Positions 10,877 to 48,559 of a stretch of DNA of 64,000 nt are shown here, in pieces. The position numbers and the translations under genes were made by a program. This DNA comes from an uncultured Planctomycetaceae bacterium (GTDB lineage Bacteria > Planctomycetota > Planctomycetia > Isosphaerales > Isosphaeraceae). The notes below the pieces were generated by a model. The model ran no database searches and had not been told where the DNA came from. It saw nothing but the letters and a program-made list of their open reading frames with translations. The first letter of the stretch is position 1, and every line of letters begins with the position of its first letter. The stretch is from positions 3,840,001 to 3,904,000 of the forward strand of contig CAWIAD010000002.1 in assembly GCA_963833985.1 (NCBI GenBank), given 5' to 3'.

Positions 10877-11047
10877 TGCAGTAGACGCTCGGAGAGTCGC
10901 AGCGTCCTTCCGCCTCGCTCAATCTCTCCTTTGGATGGCGGAGCGCCCGAAGTCGACGCCGCCCAGTTCCTCCCCGGCCGCAGATGAACGCTGGTCGGAC
11001 TGGCGCCAAGGGTTGGGAGCTGCGCCCGTGCAAACCACGCGCTGGCG

Positions 11048-11133
11048 CAGGTGGCCGCCGGCCGGGTTCTGGCTTCTGCACAGGTGGCCACCAGCCCGGT
11101 TCTGGCTTCTTCTGCACATGGTGCCACCAGCCC
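11048..11133. repeat. Imperfect 33-36 bp tandem repeat, about 2.5 copies
   Basis: Copies: CAGGTGGCCGCCGGCCGGGTTCTGGCTTCTGCA, CAGGTGGCCACCAGCCCGGTTCTGGCTTCTTCTGCA, and partial CATGGTGCCACCAGCCC. Confidence 0.75.
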
Positions 11134-11387
11134 ATCGTCTCGCGGGAAGCCCTCAGGCTGCGGGTGGATTTGCAAGCACACGGCATTTCCACCGTAGACT
11201 CAATAAGACGGCAGGGCATTTGACCGCATGCCGGGCACGCATGGGCACACAAGGAGAGCGTGCCCCACGACTCTTTGACAATGCGGTGGATGGTTCGGAC
11301 CAGCGCCCGGGCCGGCGGCGCGCTGGATCCACTTTTTTGCCAGGCATGCAAGGCCGTTTGCCGGAGCAAGAGCGCCAACCTTCGCGG

Positions 11388-11483
11388 ACGAACCCAATTC
11401 GAAAAGGCGATGCAACTCCATGTGAATCAAGGATTAACGTACGTTTTTCGTGACTCGTCAGGGTGCAAAACGAAGCCAATTCG
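11388..11483. repeat. Paired 14-mer direct repeat ACGAA(C/G)CCAATTCG
   Basis: Copies at 11388-11401 and 11470-11483, one mismatch, 82-bp period, AT-richer spacer. Confidence 0.6.
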
Positions 11484-11785
11484 GGAGCAGGCTGCGGCGC
11501 CTCCACCGGGGCGCGGCCGGGGATCACGCTTACCGGCTGGCGAGCAGGGGGGAGGCGGCGCAGCAGCCCTGTCAACCAGTCAGGCCGAGGAGGACTGGGA
11601 CCAGGCCGCACGTTCGGTTCACCTGCGCCGGGTGCTCGTGGGGAAGTGAGGCAGTGGTGTAGCCTTCGGCTGTGAACCCGGAAACACGACACCGGCGGCC
11701 GGTCATGTTAAGATACATTTCCGTGCGGATGCACTCCGCGGCAGCGCGGCCGGCGGGGACGCCCTCCAACTCGAAGTGCAAATCC

Positions 11786-13321
11786 ATGCTCGCCAAGCTT
11801 TTTTCCTACACGCTCATCGGTATCGACGCGGCCCCAGTGGAGGTCGAGGTCGACGTCTCGGCCTCGTCGATGCCCAAGACCGTGCTGGTGGGCCTGGCGG
11901 AAGCGGCGGTCAAGGAGAGCACCCACCGCGTCGAGCGCGCCATTGTGAATTCGGGCTTCCGCCGGCCGACCGACCGGATCGTCATCAACCTCGCCCCGGC
12001 CGACGTCAAGAAGGATGCCAACGGCTTCGACTTGCCGATCGCGCTGGGGTTGCTGCTGGGCAGTGCGCAGGTGGCGTATGACCGACCCGGAAACTTCGCG
12101 ATCGTCGGCGAGCTGGCGCTCACCGGCGAGACGCGCCCGGTGAAGGGGATCCTCTCGATGGCCCTCCAGGCGGTGATCGAGGGCCGCGACGGCATCCTTG
12201 TTCCCACGGCCAACGCCTCGGAGGCCGCCGTGGTCGAGGGGCTGAGCGTCTATCCCGTGGGCAGCCTCGCCGAGGCCGTCGCCTTCCTCTCCGGCCAGGT
12301 CGACATGGACCCGGAATCCGTCGACCTGGAGGAGCTCTTCGCCCAGCACTCGCACCTGGACGAGGACTTCGTCGACGTGAAGGGCCAGGACTACGCCAAG
12401 CGGGCCCTGCTGATCGCCGCGGCCGGCTGCCACAACGTGCTCATGATCGGTCCGCCGGGCACCGGCAAGACGCTCCTGGCCAAGCGCCTGCCCACGATCC
12501 TGCCCCCGCTCACGCCAGGCGAGAGCCTGGAGACCACCCGCATCTACAGCGCGATGGGAAGGCTTCAGCCGGGTCAGTCGCTCATGGCCGTGCGCCCGTT
12601 CTGCACGCCGCACCACTCGATCAGCGACGCGGGACTGGTGGGCGGCGGCAATCCGCCCCAGCCCGGACAGATCTCCATGGCCCACAAGGGCGTGCTCTTC
12701 CTCGACGAGATGCCCGAGTTCAACCGCAAGACGCTGGAGGTGCTCCGTCAGCCGCTGGAGGAGGGCAAGGTCACCATCAGCCGGGCGATGAACAGCTCGA
12801 CCTTCCCCGCCGACTTCATCCTGGTCGCCGCCATGAACCCGTGCCCATGCGGCTACAGGTCGGATCCCCGCCGGGCTTGCTCATGCACTCCGCCGCAAGT
12901 GGAAAAATACCTCAGCAAGATCTCCGGTCCGCTCCTGGATCGCATCGATCTGCACGTGGAGGTGCCGGCGGTCCCCTTCACGCAGCTTGCCGAGATGCCG
13001 CCGGGTCCGCCCTCGAGCGACTTCCGCGCCCAGGTGCTGGCCGCGCGCGAGCGGCAAACGAAGCGGTTCGGCCACAAGGGGACGCAGGTCAACGGCCGGA
13101 TGACCCCGCGCCAGATCAGGAAAGTGTGCCAGCTTCGGCCCGAGGCGATGTCCATCTTGAAGGCGGCCATGGAAGAGCTGGGCCTCTCCGCACGTGCTCA
13201 CGACAAGATCCTGCGGGTGGCGCGGACCATCGCCGACCTGGAAGACTCCGCCGAGATCCAGCCCCAGCACATCGCCGAGGCGGTGGGATATCGGTCGCTC
13301 GACCGCAGCGTGTGGATGTGA
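11786..13321 (+). CDS. comM: ComM/YifB Mg-chelatase-like AAA+ ATPase (intact copy)
   Basis: [59 protein letters not shown] and RVARTIADL motifs. Confidence 0.97.
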   Translation: MLAKLFSYTLIGIDAAPVEVEVDVSASSMPKTVLVGLAEAAVKESTHRVERAIVNSGFRRPTDRIVINLAPADVKKDANGFDLPIALGLLLGSAQVAYDRPGNFAIVGELALTGETRPVKGILSMALQAVIEGRDGILVPTANASEAAVVEGLSVYPVGSLAEAVAFLSGQVDMDPESVDLEELFAQHSHLDEDFVDVKGQDYAKRALLIAAAGCHNVLMIGPPGTGKTLLAKRLPTILPPLTPGESLETTRIYSAMGRLQPGQSLMAVRPFCTPHHSISDAGLVGGGNPPQPGQISMAHKGVLFLDEMPEFNRKTLEVLRQPLEEGKVTISRAMNSSTFPADFILVAAMNPCPCGYRSDPRRACSCTPPQVEKYLSKISGPLLDRIDLHVEVPAVPFTQLAEMPPGPPSSDFRAQVLAARERQTKRFGHKGTQVNGRMTPRQIRKVCQLRPEAMSILKAAMEELGLSARAHDKILRVARTIADLEDSAEIQPQHIAEAVGYRSLDRSVWM

Positions 13322-13374
13322 TGGTCGGGCAGGCAGACGACTGTTAGAATTCAGGAAGGAGAGTGAGTCTCGGA

Positions 13375-13659
13375 ATGCCCTACGAGATCCGTTACTCGAA
13401 CGAGGCAGTCGAGCAACTCAGGAGGCTCAGGGTCTTCGACCGAACCGCGATTCTCGATCAGATAGAGCAGGTTCTGAGAGTAAATCATACGATCGTGAAC
13501 AAGTCGCGAGTCAAGCAGCTTCGCGAGCCCGCACCGACTCAATATCGACTTCGGGTCGGCGAGTTCCGCGTCTTCTACGCCGTGGCAGAAGAGGCCGTCC
13601 TCATCATTCAGGTGTTCAGCAAGCAAGATTCGATCGACTACCTCGGAGAATCGCCATGA
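13375..13659 (+). CDS. RelE/ParE family toxin
   Basis: About 94 aa. YEIRYSNEAVEQL and YRLRVGEFRVFY motifs. GGAG RBS upstream. Confidence 0.88.
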   Translation: MPYEIRYSNEAVEQLRRLRVFDRTAILDQIEQVLRVNHTIVNKSRVKQLREPAPTQYRLRVGEFRVFYAVAEEAVLIIQVFSKQDSIDYLGESP

Positions 13660-13910
13660 CCACACAGCCTGTCAGTGATCCGAATACGCCGATCGGCGAC
13701 ATCATCAAGGCCGCTGGCTCGCAGGGGATCGTGTTTGAATCCGAGGGTCAAGGGCGTTTTGCCCTCCTGCCGCTCGATGATGACGTGATCGATCTGCTCA
13801 TCGAGCGAAGTCCGAAGTTCCGCGCGGACTGTCAGGAGATCCGCGATCGTATGAACTCGGGACAGTTCCAGACTCACGAGGACCTCAAAAGGCAACTGCT
13901 TGGAGAGTGA
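13656..13910 (+). CDS. Putative cognate antitoxin
   Basis: 84-aa acidic ORF with ATGA overlap on the toxin stop. Confidence 0.7.
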   Translation: MTTQPVSDPNTPIGDIIKAAGSQGIVFESEGQGRFALLPLDDDVIDLLIERSPKFRADCQEIRDRMNSGQFQTHEDLKRQLLGE

Positions 13911-14030
13911 CTCTGGGAGCCCCAGTGGGACTGCGCCTTGCCTCCGAAAGCTGCCCCATGACGGACACGTTCAGGGTGGGAAACAAATTCCCCAGGGTTC
14001 GCAGCCTGCGACGACAATCAGGCATGTCCC

Positions 14031-15510
14031 GAATGCCGCGAAGTTAATTTTAACTAATTGTGCCATTTGATCTTGCGCCATGGGTGAGGCTCCGGGCATC
14101 CTGTGGGAAGTACCAGGACCCACAGTTGCTGGAGGGAGCCCCACCCATGCCGCCTCGCATCATCCCTATTCTCGATCGACTGCGCCAAGATATCGCCGCG
14201 GGATTGTCCCGGGAGACGATCGAAGAAGCCTGCCGCCAGGCGAAACACCGCTGGCGGAATCGCGTTCTCGACCCCGCGACGACCATTTATCTGTTCCTTC
14301 TCCAGGTCCTTCATGGCAACACGGCTTGTCGCCACGTGGTGCACTTCGGCGCTTGGACCTTCACCGACAGCGCCTACTGCCTGGCGCGAAAGCGGCTTCC
14401 GCTGGCCGTCTTCGACTGGCTCGTGGAGCGGACCGCTGCCGCCGTGCGGACTGCTTCGGATGGCGCGCGGTGGCTCGGGCACCGAATCTGGGTCGTCGAC
14501 AGCTCCAGCTTCTCCATGCCGGACCAACCAGAACTGCAACGTCACTTCGGCCAACCCAGCGGTCAACGCAAGGGCTGTGGCTTCCCGGTGGCGAAATGGC
14601 TGGCCCTCTTCGACGTCACCACCGGCATGCTTCTGCGTTCGAGGACGGCCCCTTTGCGGACCCACGAGATGTCCCAGGTTGGCCCGATCTCCGACGGCCT
14701 GGAGCCGGGAGACATCGTGCTCGGTGACCGCGGATTTTGCTCGTATGCTCATCTGGCGATATTACTGCAACGCGGTCTGCATGCGGTTTTCCGCGTGCAC
14801 CAGCAGCAGATCGTCGATTTCACGCCGGGTCGTCCGATGGCCAGGAGGAAGGGTCCGTACCCCAGGCCGCAGGGTCTGCCGAGTTCGCGGTGGGTGTTGG
14901 CGCAGGGAACCGCAGATCAGATTGTCACATGGTTTAAATCGAAATCCCATCCGAAGTGGATGTCGGCGGATGAGTTCGAGGTGCTGCCCTCCGAGATCAC
15001 CGTGCGCGAGCTGAGGTACCGGGTCGAGACACCCGGGTATCGGGTGCGCGAAATCACGCTGGTCACGACTCTGTTAGACGCATCGACCTACCCGGCGACA
15101 GAGCTGGCCGAACTCTACTACAAGAGGTGGAGAGTCGAACTCAATTTTCGTCATATAAAGATTAGCATGAAGATGGATGTTCTGCGTTGCGAGACAGTCG
15201 AAGGGGTTCTCAAAGAGCTGGCGATTTTCAGCCTGGCGTATAACCTGGTAAGATCGGTCATGCTGGAGTCGGCACGCATGCGCGGCGTTGATCCGGATCG
15301 GATCGGCTTGATCGACGCGGTGCGCTGGCTGATCGGGTCCGAAGGGGGTTCTGAGCCCGCGCGGATCGTCATCAACCCATTGCGCCGTGGACGCGTCGAG
15401 CCCCGAGTCGTAAAGCGACGACCAAAACAATACATGCGGATGACTAGGCCCAGATCCGAACTCCGCAAACAGTTGCCAATGAAGCACTTCTGACTAACTT
15501 TGTGGCATTC
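14031..15510 (+). mobile_element. IS4-family insertion sequence, 1480 bp
   Basis: Terminal inverted repeats GAATGCCGCGAAGTTA and TAACTTTGTGGCATTC. 11-bp target duplication AGGCATGTCCC at 14020-14030 and 15511-15521. Confidence 0.93.
14147..15493 (+). CDS. IS4-family DDE transposase
   Basis: VVDSS, LGDRGF and the YREK-type motif LYYKRWRVELNFRHIK. Confidence 0.93.
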   Translation: MPPRIIPILDRLRQDIAAGLSRETIEEACRQAKHRWRNRVLDPATTIYLFLLQVLHGNTACRHVVHFGAWTFTDSAYCLARKRLPLAVFDWLVERTAAAVRTASDGARWLGHRIWVVDSSSFSMPDQPELQRHFGQPSGQRKGCGFPVAKWLALFDVTTGMLLRSRTAPLRTHEMSQVGPISDGLEPGDIVLGDRGFCSYAHLAILLQRGLHAVFRVHQQQIVDFTPGRPMARRKGPYPRPQGLPSSRWVLAQGTADQIVTWFKSKSHPKWMSADEFEVLPSEITVRELRYRVETPGYRVREITLVTTLLDASTYPATELAELYYKRWRVELNFRHIKISMKMDVLRCETVEGVLKELAIFSLAYNLVRSVMLESARMRGVDPDRIGLIDAVRWLIGSEGGSEPARIVINPLRRGRVEPRVVKRRPKQYMRMTRPRSELRKQLPMKHF

Positions 15511-15590
15511 AGGCATGTCCCCCTCGACCTCTCCTTCTCCGGAACGACAGAACAGAGGCGATATCCCGCCTCAAGAAATTAGCTCAGTCG

Positions 15591-15911
15591 ATGGAACAGA
15601 ACGTCAGCACCTTGAGCAGTGCCGAGAAGAAGCTTGAGGAAATTCAAGTGCGAGCAAGAGCGGCGGCTCAAATCCTCAATCGACTCGCTGCGGCCCTCGA
15701 ACTTTCCAATAAGCTTGGAGGGGGCGGCTTTTTCGGAAATTATCTGCTCTTGAACCAATTTGACGCAATGCAGTTGTCCAGTAATGTGAGAACTATTGCC
15801 ACGGATGCAAACAACAAGCTTGAGGAAGTCGGGCGCGTTCTCCCTCAAGAAAGGCAACGCCTGAACAATCTGAAGACCAATCTTAGGACAATTTTTAATA
15901 TTGACATATAA
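15591..15911 (+). CDS. Hypothetical helical protein of lower GC, possibly a 3' gene fragment
   Basis: 106-aa ORF with AT-richer codons than its flanks. No recognisable motif. Confidence 0.5.
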   Translation: MEQNVSTLSSAEKKLEEIQVRARAAAQILNRLAAALELSNKLGGGGFFGNYLLLNQFDAMQLSSNVRTIATDANNKLEEVGRVLPQERQRLNNLKTNLRTIFNIDI

Positions 15912-15942
15912 TAACATGCCTAAGACAGGTCTTGCGTGGAGG

Positions 15943-16350
15943 CTAGGGAATCATCGGCCCGATGGGGCCGGGCCTAAACACACTGCGAAGGATCGCCACA
16001 ACCTCCTCGCCGGTCACCTCGCGGCGGTCCAGGCGTAGCAGGGCGTCGGCCAGCGCCTCAACATGTCGCCAGTACATCTCCAGGTACAAGGCGGTCCGAG
16101 CGGCCATCCGATCGAGATAGGACTCAACCCCCTCCCGCCCGGCATGCGGGATGAGATAGATCAGCCCGGCGAGGTCCGCCGGGTTGAGGTGCTTGCGCGG
16201 GCAGCGTCCCCGGAAACGAGATTCCGCAAGCTCCCCGGCGAGGGAGATCAGGGCCTCCCGCTCGGCGAGAGCGCGGCACCTCGGTTCTCGGAGATCGAGG
16301 TCGGTGGGGAGAGGGGACAGCACGACGCATCCGGCCTCTACCCTGTACTT
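15943..16350 (-). pseudogene. C-terminal fragment of a peptidase M41-like protein
   Basis: ISLAGELAE and HVEALADALL..REVTGEEV resemble the M41 C-terminus. No HExxH seen upstream. Confidence 0.5.
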
Positions 16351-16962
16351 CGGGTCGGCCCCCAATCCGTTCGCGACGTCGGGTAACAGCGAGATCACGC
16401 TGCAAAGTTCTGGGGACGCCATACCCAATTCGATCACGCTGGAATCGACCGAGTCAGGATCGTCACCAGTAGAGCATGCGGTGAACGCCCGCACCTCTCC
16501 GCTTCGCAAGCGCACTCCGGCCGACGTCAAGAAGGATGCCAACGGCTTCGACTTGCCCATCGCGCTGGGGTTGCTGCTGGGCAGTGCGCAGGTGGCCTAT
16601 GACCGCCCCGGAAACTTCGCGATCGTCGGCGAGCTGGCCCTTACCGGCGAGACGCGCCCTGTGAAGGGGATCCTCTCGATGGCCCTCCAGGCGGTGATCG
16701 AGGGCCGCGACGGCATCCTGGTCCCCACGGCCAACGCCTCGGAGGCCGCCGTGGTCGAGGGGCTGAGCGTCTATCCCGTGGACAGCCTCGCCGAGGCCGT
16801 CGCCTTCCTCTCCGGCCAGGTCGACATGGACCCGGAATCCGTCGACCTGGAGGAGCTCTTCGCCCAGCACTCGCACATGGACGAGGACTTCGTCGACGTG
16901 AAGGGCCAGGACTACGCCAAGCGGGCCCTGCTGATCGCCGCGGCCGGCTGCCACAACGTGCT

Positions 16963-17170
16963 AACATTGTGGTCGATTACACCCTCTCTGGTTGATTCGT
17001 TCTGGAGATCAGCAATGGACCTTCTGTTTTTCTTGGCGTGTGCCGTTCTCGGTGCTGGGTCTCTCGTTTCCCACTCGCTTTTGCGAATTGCGAAGGCGTT
17101 GGAAGAGAGGAATCGGCTCGAAAGTCGGCAGACGCAGCCGTGATGTCAATACTGGCGGCTGCAACCTGCT
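16963..17170 (+). mobile_element. 208-bp non-autonomous one-gene cassette inserted at the comM HNVL|M site
   Basis: Absent from the intact copy. Flanked by CAACGTGCT (16954-16962) and CAACCTGCT (17162-17170). Confidence 0.75.
17015..17143 (+). CDS. 42-aa single-TM small protein (cassette cargo)
   Basis: GGAG RBS 7 nt upstream. Sequence MDLLFFLACAVLGAGSLVSHSLLRIAKALEERNRLESRQTQP is a hydrophobic helix plus a charged tail. Confidence 0.65.
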   Translation: MDLLFFLACAVLGAGSLVSHSLLRIAKALEERNRLESRQTQP

Positions 17171-18097
17171 CATGATCGGTCCGCCGGGCACCGGCAAGAC
17201 GCTGCTGGCCAAGCGCCTGCCCACGATCCTGCCGCCCCTCACGCCCGGCGAGAGCCTGGAGACCACCCGCATCTACAGCGCGATGGGGCGGCTCCAGCCG
17301 GGTCAGTCGCTCATGGCCGTGCGCCCCTTCTGCACTCCGCACCACTCGATCAGCGATGCGGGGCTGGTGGGCGGCGGCAATCCGCCCCAGCCCGGACAGA
17401 TCTCCATGGCCCACAAGGGCGTGCTCTTCCTCGACGAGATGCCCGAGTTCAACCGCAAGACCCTGGAGGTGCTCCGTCAGCCGCTGGAGGAGGGGAAGGT
17501 CACCATCAGCCGGGCGATGAACAGCTCGACCTTCCCCGCCGACTTCATCCTGGTCGCCGCCATGAACCCGTGCCCCTGCGGATACCGCTCCGATCCCCGC
17601 CGGGCTTGCTCGTGCACTCCGCCGCAAGTGGAAAAATACCTCAGCAAGATCTCCGGCCCGCTGCTGGATCGCATCGACCTGCACGTGGAGGTGCCCGCCG
17701 TCCCCTTCACGCAGCTTGCCGAGATGCCGCCGGGTCCGCCCTCGAGCGACTTCCGCGCCCAGGTGCTGGCCGCGCGCGAGCGGCAAACGAAGCGGTTCGG
17801 CCACAAGGGCCCCCAGGTCAATGGCCGCATGACTCCGCGGCAGCTTCGCAAGCTGTGTGCCCTCAAGCCAGAGGCGATGACGATCCTCAAGGCCGCCATG
17901 GAGGAGCTCGGCTTATCGGCGCGCGCTCACGACAAGGTGCTGCGCGTGGACCGCACCATTGCCGACCTGGAAGACTCCGCCGAGATCCAGCCCCAGCACA
18001 TCGCCGAAGCGGTCGGCTACAGGTCGCTCGACCGCAGCGTGTGAATGTAGAATTGTGTTCGGAACCGAGGTCTTCCCGTACAGAGGAGCGCTCGCTG

Positions 18098-18391
18098 ATG
18101 GCAACCGGACAGAGCTTACAGCGCGATACGTCGAGTGAACTGGCCATCTTCGCGCGGTTGATCAGGGCCGACGCTTCCCACCTCTCGCGCAACCTGGCCC
18201 GCTACATCCTCACACTCGGTTTCGATGCCGCGGATCAAAATAGGATGACGGATCTGGCGGAGCGGAACCAGGCTGGCACCTTGTCCGGAGAGGGGAAGGC
18301 AGAACTGGAGCATTTCGTCAAAGCGGGACACTTGTTAGCCCTGCTGCACTCGAAGGCCAGAATCGCCTTGAAAGTCAAGAGGACGAAATGA
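18098..18391 (+). CDS. Small helical hypothetical protein, antitoxin-like partner of the HNH gene
   Basis: GAGGAG RBS. 97 aa with RMTDLAERNQAGTLS..EL. Directly upstream of the HNH gene. Confidence 0.7.
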   Translation: MATGQSLQRDTSSELAIFARLIRADASHLSRNLARYILTLGFDAADQNRMTDLAERNQAGTLSGEGKAELEHFVKAGHLLALLHSKARIALKVKRTK

Positions 18392-18398
18392 GGCCGCC

Positions 18399-18540
18399 AT
18401 GGAGTCATCGCTCGCTCGAGAGGTGAGGGAGCGAGCATGGCACGCCTGTGAGTACTGCCGGATGCCCCAGTCTTGTTATCCGACGGTTCCGTTTCCCATC
18501 GACCATATCGTCGCCCGCCAGCACGGTGGTGAGACCACGA
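18399..18540 (+). pseudogene. Truncated HNH endonuclease
   Basis: VRERAWHACEYCR...IDHIVARQHGG is present, but the downstream NL..C..CN half is missing. Confidence 0.75.
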
Positions 18541-19108
18541 AAGTGCTCCGACATGAGGCAATTGACCGAGGACACTGGGTGTCCAGGGCAAATGGGGCCA
18601 GCCCATCGTTTTCCAGAAACATGGATCGGAAGAAATTGTTCTCATATGCCATTATCGGAGTCGTGTCAGTATGCCCCGAGCACGCTCGGAAATCGTCTGC
18701 CTCCATGACGCCAGTGCGTGTTTCTGGCAGGGACTGGTCGAACTCAGCGGCTACCCGAACGCCTACCGGCGTCTTTTCGACAGGTTCGACCGCGAGGCCA
18801 CGCTTCTCGCATTCAGTGCTGGCTCGCGGAGGCTGGCTTACGCGACGTTCGAGCCATCCCTCTGCTCCAACCGGATGGGCCCGGCTCCTCGCCCAGGCTG
18901 ACACAGGGCGCGCGAGCTGAGATTGGGAGCGCGTCGCCCGAGGGGCAAGCAGGACCCCGCAATCAACGGCCACGGCCTGGGCATCGGCCGTGCCGAGGGG
19001 GAGTCGCACGGATGGGCGGCTCTGCTTATCATGGGAAAGACCCGGGGACGTACTGCCCGCCGAATCGTCGCGGGCTCGATGTCGCGGAGAGGAAGAGACG
19101 AGGTGCTC

Positions 19109-28613: not shown

Positions 28614-29999
28614 ATGAATCAGCGACACACTGCTTCCCCGGGCGGCTCTCGCCGCGACTTCCTGCGAGCTTCTCTTGGGACGATGACCGCCGGCCTGGCG
28701 TTTCCGACCATCGTGCCGGCAGCTTCGCTCGGACTCGGCGGCCGGATCGCGCCGAGCAACCGGGTGACGGTCGCGGTCATCGGCACGGGCAACCAGGGGT
28801 TCAACGATATTGGCTCATTCCTGCGCGACGAGCGCGTGCAGATCGTGGCCGTCTGCGACGTGAACCGCGAAAGCGCAGGGTACTGGGACGGCAAGGTCGG
28901 CGGCCGCGAGCCGGCCAAACGCAAGGTGGAAGAATACTACGCGGGGCACAAGCCCTCGGGCACCTATCGCGGCTGCGACGCGGTGGTCGATTTCCGCGAG
29001 ATCCTGGGGCGGAGCGACATCGACGCCGTCGAGGTCGCCACTCCGGACCACTGGCACGCCATTCCGGTGATCGAGGCCTGCAAGGCGGGAAAGGATATCT
29101 ATTGCCAGAAGCCGCTGGCCCTGACCATCGCCGAGGGCCGCGCCATGAGCTACGCCGTGAACAAGCACCACGTCGTTTTTCAGACCGGCAGCCAGCAGCG
29201 GTCCGACGACCGCTTCCACCGCGCCTGCGAGCTGGTGCGCAACGGCCGCATCGGCGAGCTGAAGACGGCCCGCGTCGGACTGCCCGGCGGGCGGCCCGAC
29301 CTGGCGAAAACGGGCGATCGCAAATCGCCCGCGCCGGTTCCGCAAGGCTTCGAGTATAACACCTGGCTGGGCCCCGCGCCCGACGCCTCCTATGCCCCAG
29401 CGCGGTGCCATGTGAACTTCCGCTGGATCCTCGATTACTCGGGCGGACAGGTGACCGACTGGGGCGGGCATCATCCGGACATCGCCCAGTGGGGCATGGG
29501 CACCGAGCTGACCGGCCCGGTCGAGCTGCGCAACATCCACGGCGAGTTTCCTCCCGACCCGCTCTGGAACACCGCGACCGATTTCCATATCGAGGCCGTC
29601 TACGAGAACGGTGTCACCATGATCATCTCGAACAAGAACCGCATGGGCGTGACGTTCGAGGGGAGCAAGGGAAGCATCTACGTCGACAGGGGGAAGCTCA
29701 CGGCCGACCCGAAGTCGATCCTCGATTCGAAGATCGGCCCGAACGAGATCCACCTCTACAAGAGCGATGACCACTTCCGGAACTTCATCGACTGCGTGAT
29801 CTCGCGCGGACCGACCGCCGCACCCGTCGAGGTGGCCCACCGCTCGATCACGATCGCCCATCTGGGGAACATCGCCATGCGGCTCGGCCGCAAGACTCTG
29901 AAGTGGGACCCGCGCACCGAGCAGATCGTGGGCGACGAGGAAGCCTCGAAGCTGCTCAGCCGGCCGTACCGTGATCCCTGGAAATTGCCAACCGCTTGA
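28614..29999 (+). CDS. Tat-exported Gfo/Idh/MocA oxidoreductase
   Basis: SRRDFL Tat signal, VIGTG, ATPDHWH, CQKP and DWGGHH. Confidence 0.92.
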   Translation: MNQRHTASPGGSRRDFLRASLGTMTAGLAFPTIVPAASLGLGGRIAPSNRVTVAVIGTGNQGFNDIGSFLRDERVQIVAVCDVNRESAGYWDGKVGGREPAKRKVEEYYAGHKPSGTYRGCDAVVDFREILGRSDIDAVEVATPDHWHAIPVIEACKAGKDIYCQKPLALTIAEGRAMSYAVNKHHVVFQTGSQQRSDDRFHRACELVRNGRIGELKTARVGLPGGRPDLAKTGDRKSPAPVPQGFEYNTWLGPAPDASYAPARCHVNFRWILDYSGGQVTDWGGHHPDIAQWGMGTELTGPVELRNIHGEFPPDPLWNTATDFHIEAVYENGVTMIISNKNRMGVTFEGSKGSIYVDRGKLTADPKSILDSKIGPNEIHLYKSDDHFRNFIDCVISRGPTAAPVEVAHRSITIAHLGNIAMRLGRKTLKWDPRTEQIVGDEEASKLLSRPYRDPWKLPTA

Positions 30000-48410: not shown

Positions 48411-48559
48411 GACTCTCTCTCCTTCGTGAATTCTGACAGTCCTCTGCTTGCCCGACCACCACATCCACACGCTTCAATCCAGCGACTGGTAGCCGACCGC
48501 CTCGGCTATGTGCTGGGGCTGGATCTCGGTGGAGTCTTCCAGGCCGGCGATCGTGCGCG
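48411..48559 (-). pseudogene. comM: comM 3'-end remnant plus 48 nt of downstream sequence
   Basis: The reverse complement aligns without gaps to 13221..13369, about 130/149 identical by hand count. Translates as RTIAGLEDSTEIQPQHIAEAVGYQSLD*. Confidence 0.88.

Follow-up and report, generated by a model that had tools for sequence, protein, structure and literature searches.

A 208-bp single-gene insert in a second comM copy belongs to an integron-like set of cassettes at large-serine-recombinase (LSR) attachment sites that spans the bacterial family

The window analysed here, a stretch of 64,000 nucleotides from the genome of an uncultured Planctomycetaceae bacterium (10.2 Mb, 65% GC, two contigs), holds two copies of comM on the plus strand. 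The first (comM/yifB, 11786..13321) is intact, encodes 511 aa with the Pfam domains ChlI, Mg_chelatase and Mg_chelatase_C, and contains an unoccupied attB with its core CT at 12440-12441. The second copy is incomplete and interrupted. Its 5′ part (16507..16960, plus strand) corresponds to comM nt 201-654; nt 1-200, and with them the gene start, are missing, and the copy begins (~16507) at a recurrent breakpoint between NLAP and AD. Its 3′ part (17169..18044, plus strand) runs from Walker A onward; an ATG of its own lies at 17172, and the stop (TGA, 18042-44) comes two codons early. Left of the interruption the second copy matches the intact gene at 97.8% identity (nt 211-656 in the alignment), and in the 3′ part at 91.9%. 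Codon differences between the copies number 49 synonymous and 9 non-synonymous in the 3′ part and 57 and 11 overall, and this ratio indicates that the second copy was derived from a working allele.

Alignment with the intact gene places exactly 208 extra bases in the second copy, in agreement with an earlier note on this DNA, which had described the same insert and the same flanks (CAACGTGCT at 16954-16962 and CAACCTGCT at 17162-17170). The insert (16961..17168, plus strand, GC 0.53) splits the Leu codon of the HNV-L-M motif (codon 218-219, before Walker A) at a CT shared by both ends (16961-62 on the left, 17169-70 on the right). As the note also said, it holds a ribosome-binding site and a 42-aa ORF: a Shine-Dalgarno-like GGAG (17004..17007, plus strand) lies 7 nt 5′ of the ATG of the cargo gene (17015..17143, plus strand), and the right end resupplies a comM-like sequence in frame. 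The N-terminal half of the cargo protein is hydrophobic and likely forms one membrane helix. Two database homologues share 86% identity with it each; no Pfam family was matched, and all Atlas matches were below 0.9. An Rfam scan of 11000-19000 found nothing. The insert and its ends occur once in the genome, and DNA and protein searches of 120 genomes of the bacterial family found no second copy of the 208-bp unit; an exact scan of a genome-contig collection with the right-junction 18-mer returned 88 stretches, none related to comM and all chance matches. The +1 frame of the insert stays open for 350 codons, starting at 16992 and running on through the comM 3′ half as far as 18044, probably as a by-product of the in-frame B-like right end.

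The suggestion in the earlier note that the insert could act as an on/off switch for comM is not borne out. Since the host copy is without its first 67 codons and an intact gene is present 3.2 kb upstream of it, excision could not restore function. Among relatives, too, an interrupted copy is often accompanied by a full-length comM in the same genome (G010, G024, G063, G064, G124, G135).

Several other features lie around the two copies. The interval between them (13322-16506) contains the gene of a ParE-type toxin (13375-13659), followed by a partner ORF, as well as an IS4-type DDE transposase (14060-15493), an ORF of 106 aa and low GC (15591-15911) and a frame on the minus strand (15943-16560). 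In G001, G006 and G008 comM is likewise followed by the ParE module, as is a comM fragment in G063. The NLAP/AD boundary at nt 201, within 16430-16520, is the second recurrent breakpoint of comM besides HNV-L-M, and comM copies in G063, G009, G011 and metagenome loci start there as well. A stretch of ~90 bp just upstream has 89% identity to G063 and similar counterparts in G009, G011, the metagenome loci L227 and L230, and at C2:5023414 of the same genome, and the breakpoint looks like the end of another element family. The same comM fragment (aa 70-221) in G063, L227 and L230 also bears the cassette arm described below. A 100-bp copy of the comM 3′ end and its downstream flank is present at 48460-48559 (minus strand), and many relatives (G002, G010, G020, G024, G051, G059, G063) have several comM 3′-end fragments of varied length, each followed by different cargo, which may represent a separate capture route at comM. 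A decayed comM fragment that begins at the HNV-L-M site (CHNTLMIGPPG-like) lies outside the window, 95 kb downstream (G000:C2:3951560-3951660), with no arm upstream of it; a further match at C2:3979618 is presumably an FtsH-like Walker A rather than comM. The genome (G000) also carries 11 near-identical copies of a serine-recombinase-type IS frame (537-626 aa; e.g. C1:776122), unrelated to the large serine recombinase (LSR) at comM discussed below.

The left junction (16941..16984, plus strand) is attL-like, consisting of a comM B half, the core CT at 16961-16962 and an element arm, P′, in the same register as the attL of LSR elements in genomes G096 and G402. The P′ arm, AACATTGTGGTCGATTACACCC (16963..16984, plus strand), is the left end conserved across all cassettes of the family, and in the window it shares 15-17 of its 22 bases with the arms of the G096 and G010 LSR elements. 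The arm motif alone was found in 21 of the 121 family genomes, including that of the window, which has one arm site only; the pattern of comM left half plus arm was found in 9 of the 121, and reversed controls gave 0 in both cases. At 54 sites away from comM the consensus reads c.GGcgg.ct..Ac.T. followed by the core CT and GACgTTGTGGtCAATTTcACCC. Across the phylum, 12 of 401 genomes matched the arm pattern, again counting the one analysed here, with 3 matches for the control. The 11 matches outside the family are single sites free of comM, arrays or cassette homologues and are therefore treated as chance. Viral contigs gave 0 matches, and a metagenome collection gave 8 loci that match the arm exactly, some of them redundant, of which four are at comM and three have further non-comM sites. 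In relatives, comM fragments begin or end at the HNV-L-M codon.

The right end of the insert, X (17149..17168, plus strand), is a B-type half-site that resembles the left half of the comM site, with GGCGG at -15 to -11. It scores -5.6 on a B-PWM built from comM left halves of intact genes in relatives (null -34 +/- 10) and -18.8 on the P-PWM. Together with the core CT at 17169-17170 and the comM B′ half, it makes the right junction (17149..17190, plus strand) a regenerated attB-like site, which scores 23.5 on the attB-PWM against 52.9 for intact comM and -14.9 for the left junction. The same tendency is seen elsewhere in the family: of 35 internal junctions, 71% lie above the 95th percentile of the null on the comM-left PWM, against 11% on a mirrored-arm PWM. 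Compared with comM B′, five of 7 array termini match at p<=0.005 and one at 0.048, while one shows no resemblance. Right ends of the autonomous type (G006, G009, G010, G096) mirror the arm, whereas those of cassettes do not. The B-like right ends and comM-like termini together indicate an array layout of B-P′ gene X-P′ gene X-B′, with attL-like joints and a terminal attB-like site.

This arrangement modifies what the earlier note had taken for a recombinase core. Joining the two ends does give the 12-bp imperfect inverted repeat around a 7-bp spacer that it described, with 8/12 matches, but the same register yields at most 6/12 (mode 3) in the 35 other junctions, and the joined ends fold no better than shuffles (z -0.6, -1.2). 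In view of both results the 12-7-12 palindrome is probably a chance feature. The idea of an att-bounded element at a site-specific hotspot holds; the exchange point is the 2-bp CT rather than the palindrome.

Other splits of comM at this site and larger same-site elements with a recombinase, both of which the note had proposed to search for, do exist: same-ended inserts are present in G024 and G064, and the larger elements carry an LSR. In G010 an LSR gene, interrupted by a stop, adjoins the same comM break. The LSR family was found in 7 of 121 family genomes and 39 of 401 class genomes. At the 32 LSR loci examined, the neighbour is comM broken at aa 216-221 in 8 cases and comM broken close to Walker B in 5, while the other 19 lack comM within 1.5 kb; within the family, an LSR sits at the HNV-L-M site in only 2 of 121 genomes (G010 and G096). 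Complete LSR elements of 36-37 kb with both comM halves are present in G096 and G402. In both elements attL is different from attR at -1 and +2, on either side of CT; the window cassette puts the exchange no later than +1 and that of G064 no earlier than -1, and these bounds together fix the exchange point at the 2-bp CT. The joined attP of G096 has 12-bp inverted arms, and its LSR protein, encoded on the minus strand at about 63609-65321 of G096:C2, has Resolvase and Recombinase domains; the zinc-ribbon match of the LSR is weak (E 0.0098). On the cassette-arm PWM, LSR-adjacent arms score above all null 20-mers in 5 of 7 cases and at the 1% level in another, the last falling short. The 208-bp cassette therefore shares with an LSR integrative element the 2-bp core and its fixed B and P half-sites, and lacks the LSR and the P-type right end.

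The enzyme itself was not found in the genome of the window, nor in five array-rich genomes of 61-99% completeness. A tblastn search with 14 recombinase queries (11 tyrosine and 2 serine recombinases from the same genome, plus the G096 LSR) detected no recombinase beside arrays at 20 loci of 3-20 kb or in the window, and among 14 LSR candidates in viral contigs 0 were confirmed.

The wider LSR survey also brought several observations in their own right. Within the complete G096 element, ~44 and ~124 bp from its right end, there are two additional arm-like motifs (L285:2120-2270; G096:C2 about 29120-29270), which could be accessory sites or remnants of tiny units. Related LSRs are inserted just ahead of the comM Walker B codons, in the Tn6022/Tsy region, at L220, L264, L267, L271 and L272 (G090, G704, G028, G581 and G767). 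Six others (L248-L253) and a copy in G132 have a common, different target gene, and the loci L259 and L262 end in tRNA-like sequence. At the HNV-L-M site of comM, G009 has an 18-kb element with palindromic P-type ends (L123-L124; G009:C2 214257-232326) and G006 a P-type right end (L121; G006:C277), with no LSR detected in either.

The 208-bp insert belongs to an integron-like cassette system that extends across the family and rests on LSR attachment sites. From the window, 20 array regions and 7 further loci we collected 36 cassettes: 32 intervals between consecutive sites no more than 1.5 kb apart, plus 4 terminal units added by hand. They measure 143-1404 bp (median 364) with a mean GC of 0.55, and 35 of the 36 carry a same-strand ORF of at least 25 aa under a mechanical choice of ORF. 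Most of these ORFs start ~45-60 nt past the core and stop within ~60 nt of the next one, and the stop codon frequently lies 4 nt ahead of the crossover or overlaps it. A Pfam scan of 14 cassette proteins, the 42-aa one included, gave three above the cut-off, namely Imm-NTF2, DUF1493 and a protein with HEAT repeats that matched several families of the HEAT type, two weaker matches (HEAT, Gly-zipper) and none for 9 of the 14. The majority of arrays are located away from comM, and the largest has 7 sites in one region (G056). Complete inserts between both comM halves were found in the window (208 bp), in G064 (614 bp) and in G024 (1404 + 356 bp). Many of the genomes are incomplete assemblies whose comM contains frameshifts, and kin are not independent observations.

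Cassettes recur in new company. One of 356-357 bp, 93-95% identical between copies, ends at the same base in each of four settings: it precedes the comM 3′ half in G024, lies within an array of G056, and closes both a second array of G056 and one of G066. A cassette of 221-224 bp follows that unit in one array and precedes it in two. Further units are shared within G060 and between G060 and G055, G059 and the metagenome locus L223, and G086, G089 and G083, and G007 and G124 are linked by a common cassette right end. An orthologous locus in three congeners is empty in G084 and holds 3 cassettes in G085 and at least 4 in G086, the latter two having a common cassette end on the left and diverging on the right; the empty G084 site is the best match to the comM attB among 4122 windows of its locus. 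For three other arrays the search for an empty site gave no usable orthologue. At the sequence level, then, the common core, the two kinds of half-site, the arrays, the shared cassettes with exact ends and the empty site are all in evidence. The core letters are less regular. Strict serine-recombinase chemistry requires matching cores; the letters at the two ends of a cassette are identical in 25 of 36 cases and different in 11, a concordance that is uninformative given the 20.8 expected by chance, and the first junction of G085 is CC where the empty site is CT.

How would such units move? We lean towards the view that a recombinase-less cassette of this build, seated at the LSR core CT with an attP arm on the left and an attB-like end on the right, travels by accretion and cis-mobilisation with a visiting LSR element and not alone. 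An LSR element would integrate (attP x attB) at the attB-like site on the right end of the cassette, and would then excise via the outer, attL-like left junction (attL x attR), carrying the cassette along and forming a true attP. The composite would integrate at comM or a comM-like site of another cell, where the element would leave through the inner junction; the cassette would stay, again with an attB-like site on its right. All of these steps would be ordinary serine-integrase chemistry (attP x attB or attL x attR), and repeated cycles would build arrays that grow rightward with attL-like joints. A cassette would likely be born when one element inserts into a sequence that resembles attB by chance and lies directly behind another element's first gene. 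Accretion and mobilisation of this kind would account for the B-like right ends, the rightward growth, the shared units and the missing enzyme. It is also the published route for CIMEs in the available text of PMC7563491, and the accessible part of PMC3146451 proposes accretion and co-mobilisation for Dehalococcoides islands. Action of the enzyme on the cassettes, the four steps and the present mobility of the 208-bp unit are what we infer from these comparisons. Several results count against cis-mobilisation: the fetched flanks of 8 LSR elements (8-60 kb each) contain no composite of cassettes and an LSR element, a search of these data revealed no recombination directionality factor, the LSR turned up neither in the genome of the window nor in the array-rich genomes and occupies the site in only 2 of 121 genomes, cores mismatch in 11 of 36 cassettes, and the 208-bp unit has a single copy.

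The earlier note had pictured a minimal non-autonomous cassette mobilised in trans. That the unit is recombinase-less, carries a single gene and needs an outside enzyme agrees with our results; a free 208-bp circle is doubtful. Under that alternative an LSR acting in trans would recombine the left and right junctions (attL-like x attB-like), and the circle would reinsert at comM or at the end of an array, as in integrons. It predicts the same final architecture, shared cassettes and right-end growth, it has no need of the composite intermediate, of which none was seen, and the weak zinc-ribbon match of the LSR family leaves room for relaxed directionality. The pairing itself is the obstacle. 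Recombination of attB with attL is disfavoured for a serine integrase, and with arms in a 3:1 ratio of B to P even a hyperactive phiC31 Int gave almost no synapsis or product (PMC2475636), which makes excision through attL-like and attB-like ends doubtful; cassettes as small as 143 bp would moreover seem short for a double-stranded loop. We therefore hold the free circle to be unlikely. We give similarly little weight to an immobile scar, in which the 208-bp unit would be the deletion remnant of one larger LSR island and the arrays graveyards of successive islands at a hotspot. The lack of a second copy fits such a remnant, as does a host comM already broken, on account of which decay would go unselected, and CIMEs are by definition deletion derivatives in the part of PMC7563491 available. 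Yet a plain internal deletion retains a P-type right end, as in G006, G009, G010 and G096, and the right end of the 208-bp unit is B-like. Cassettes of the family also recur in different genera with base-exact ends and different neighbours, and the 42-aa ORF is intact, with 86% homologues elsewhere.

A quite improbable reading is that a tyrosine recombinase, of the host or of an element, acts on an 11-6-11 site of the lox/dif type formed by the weak palindrome of the arm (TGACATT-GTGGTC-AATTTCA). The arm does hold this internal imperfect inverted repeat, the core letters vary, the LSR is missing from array-rich genomes and the genome of the window encodes 13 tyrosine-recombinase matches of its own. 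The position of exchange, however, speaks against it: the crossover is at CT (0/+1), at least 7 bases left of the putative 6-bp spacer (+8 to +13), the bases at +2 to +7 go with the partner on the downstream side, and the right 11-mer is wholly absent from terminal junctions. The same arm also flanks LSR genes, and the 14 queries revealed no recombinase near the 20 array loci. No tyrosine recombinase was found near the comM splits of G009, G010, G006, G074 and G024; in the metagenome locus L229 one lies beyond the array, behind an IS-like frame, with no link to the array. We reject the lox/dif-like 11-6-11 module, since exchange at CT lies outside its putative spacer.

Among described systems, the CIMEs and microCIMEs of streptococci come close to cassettes moved with a visiting element: as the consulted portion of PMC7563491 describes them, they lack a recombinase, are bounded by att sites, occur in tandem and are moved by an autonomous element that sits in a flanking att site and co-excises with them. 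The 208-bp cassette likewise has att sites without recombination or transfer genes. Cassettes stand in tandem with one another, and no tandem with an LSR element was seen at 8 such elements; attL and attR kept after a deletion are not what the 208-bp unit shows, its right junction being attB-like and not attR-like. MicroCIMEs are gene-less at 130-220 bp, whereas the 208-bp cassette carries one gene, and published CIMEs, at least in the sections accessible of that source, are decayed ICE/IME derivatives with attL and attR ends that reach 1.2-13 kb when gene-bearing. Cassettes, in contrast, measure 143-821 bp (one 1404), have one gene in a fixed layout and an attB-like right end, occupy an LSR site that lies within a gene, and build arrays at ectopic sites resembling comM. 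Accretion in tandem at a single att site is also known from SCC composites, the LSR precedent for such tandems, and ccr-less elements at rlmH, some without recombinase and thought to be co-mobilised (PMC13739063, available text), and from Dehalococcoides ssrA islands without an integration module, also thought to be co-mobilised (PMC3146451, as far as accessible). As portrayed in those parts of the two sources, both are multi-kilobase islands at the 3′ end of one gene, whereas the cassettes are single genes spread across genera and many loci.

The target gene itself is familiar. Mg-chelatase/comM is the commonest LSR target, with 12.4% of predicted site-specific LSRs, in the available part of Durrant et al. 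(PMC10083194), and sr1WO of phage WO targets comM according to the accessible text of PMC9203015. These LSR elements use the same gene as the cassette, and LSR elements in relatives have the same CT core and the same attP arm. The 208-bp cassette differs from them in having no recombinase and no P-type right end, and the portions available of both descriptions contain neither cassettes nor arrays. Tn6022/AbaR and Tsy elements also use comM, Tsy forms circles, and both are anchored at the Walker B region and code for TnsF together with Tn7 or YRec proteins (PMC10293859, in the part accessible). Membership in that group was rejected for the cassette, which sits at codon 218-219 before Walker A, has a 2-bp core and encodes nothing of TnsF size. 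In the literature covered, to which most subscription papers do not belong, we found no description of single-gene LSR cassette arrays; the supplements of PMC10083194 may list the HNV-L-M position.

Resemblance to integrons and CALINs lies in the arrays of small, low-GC, single-ORF cassettes on the same strand, in their variable order, in cargo that is mainly of unknown function or immunity-like, and in the frequent absence of an integrase nearby. The cassettes differ in several ways: they have neither an attC hairpin nor a GTTRRRY box, the stop leaves no space for attC behind it, their conserved arm is at the 5′ end, and their enzyme would be a serine recombinase. Tests for integron features came out negative. 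Single-stranded folding gave z ~0 on both strands, with 1 of 35 junctions below -2 on each; GTTRRRY stood at the crossover in 0 of 35 junctions and the inverse core RYYYAAC in 3 of 35; and the 14-query tblastn search gave no recombinase match near the 20 array loci or in the window, where an integron would have IntI and attI.

Integrons are the textbook route by which single genes are collected in ordered arrays. Our data point to a second gene-collecting route, based on LSR attachment chemistry and an attB-mimic end, with no dedicated integrase and no hairpin. Going further, and tentatively, we propose a serine-recombinase analogue of the integron in this bacterial family: a shared pool of one-gene cassettes, each made of an attP arm, a gene and an attB mimic, whose docking site would be regenerated at every insertion and whose arrays would grow at comM and its look-alikes whenever a comM-targeting LSR element passes. 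Cassettes would then be evolved, self-perpetuating parasites of LSR elements and not debris, a reading to which we attach slightly less than even confidence. A landing site that regenerates itself for serial insertion would, if functional, be useful for genome engineering. For the family, variable gene rows that integron finders miss would find an explanation, orphan arrays are tied to a named enzyme and site, with a complete 36-kb element and its attP in G096, and comM, the commonest LSR target, may serve as the seed of a gene-capture system.
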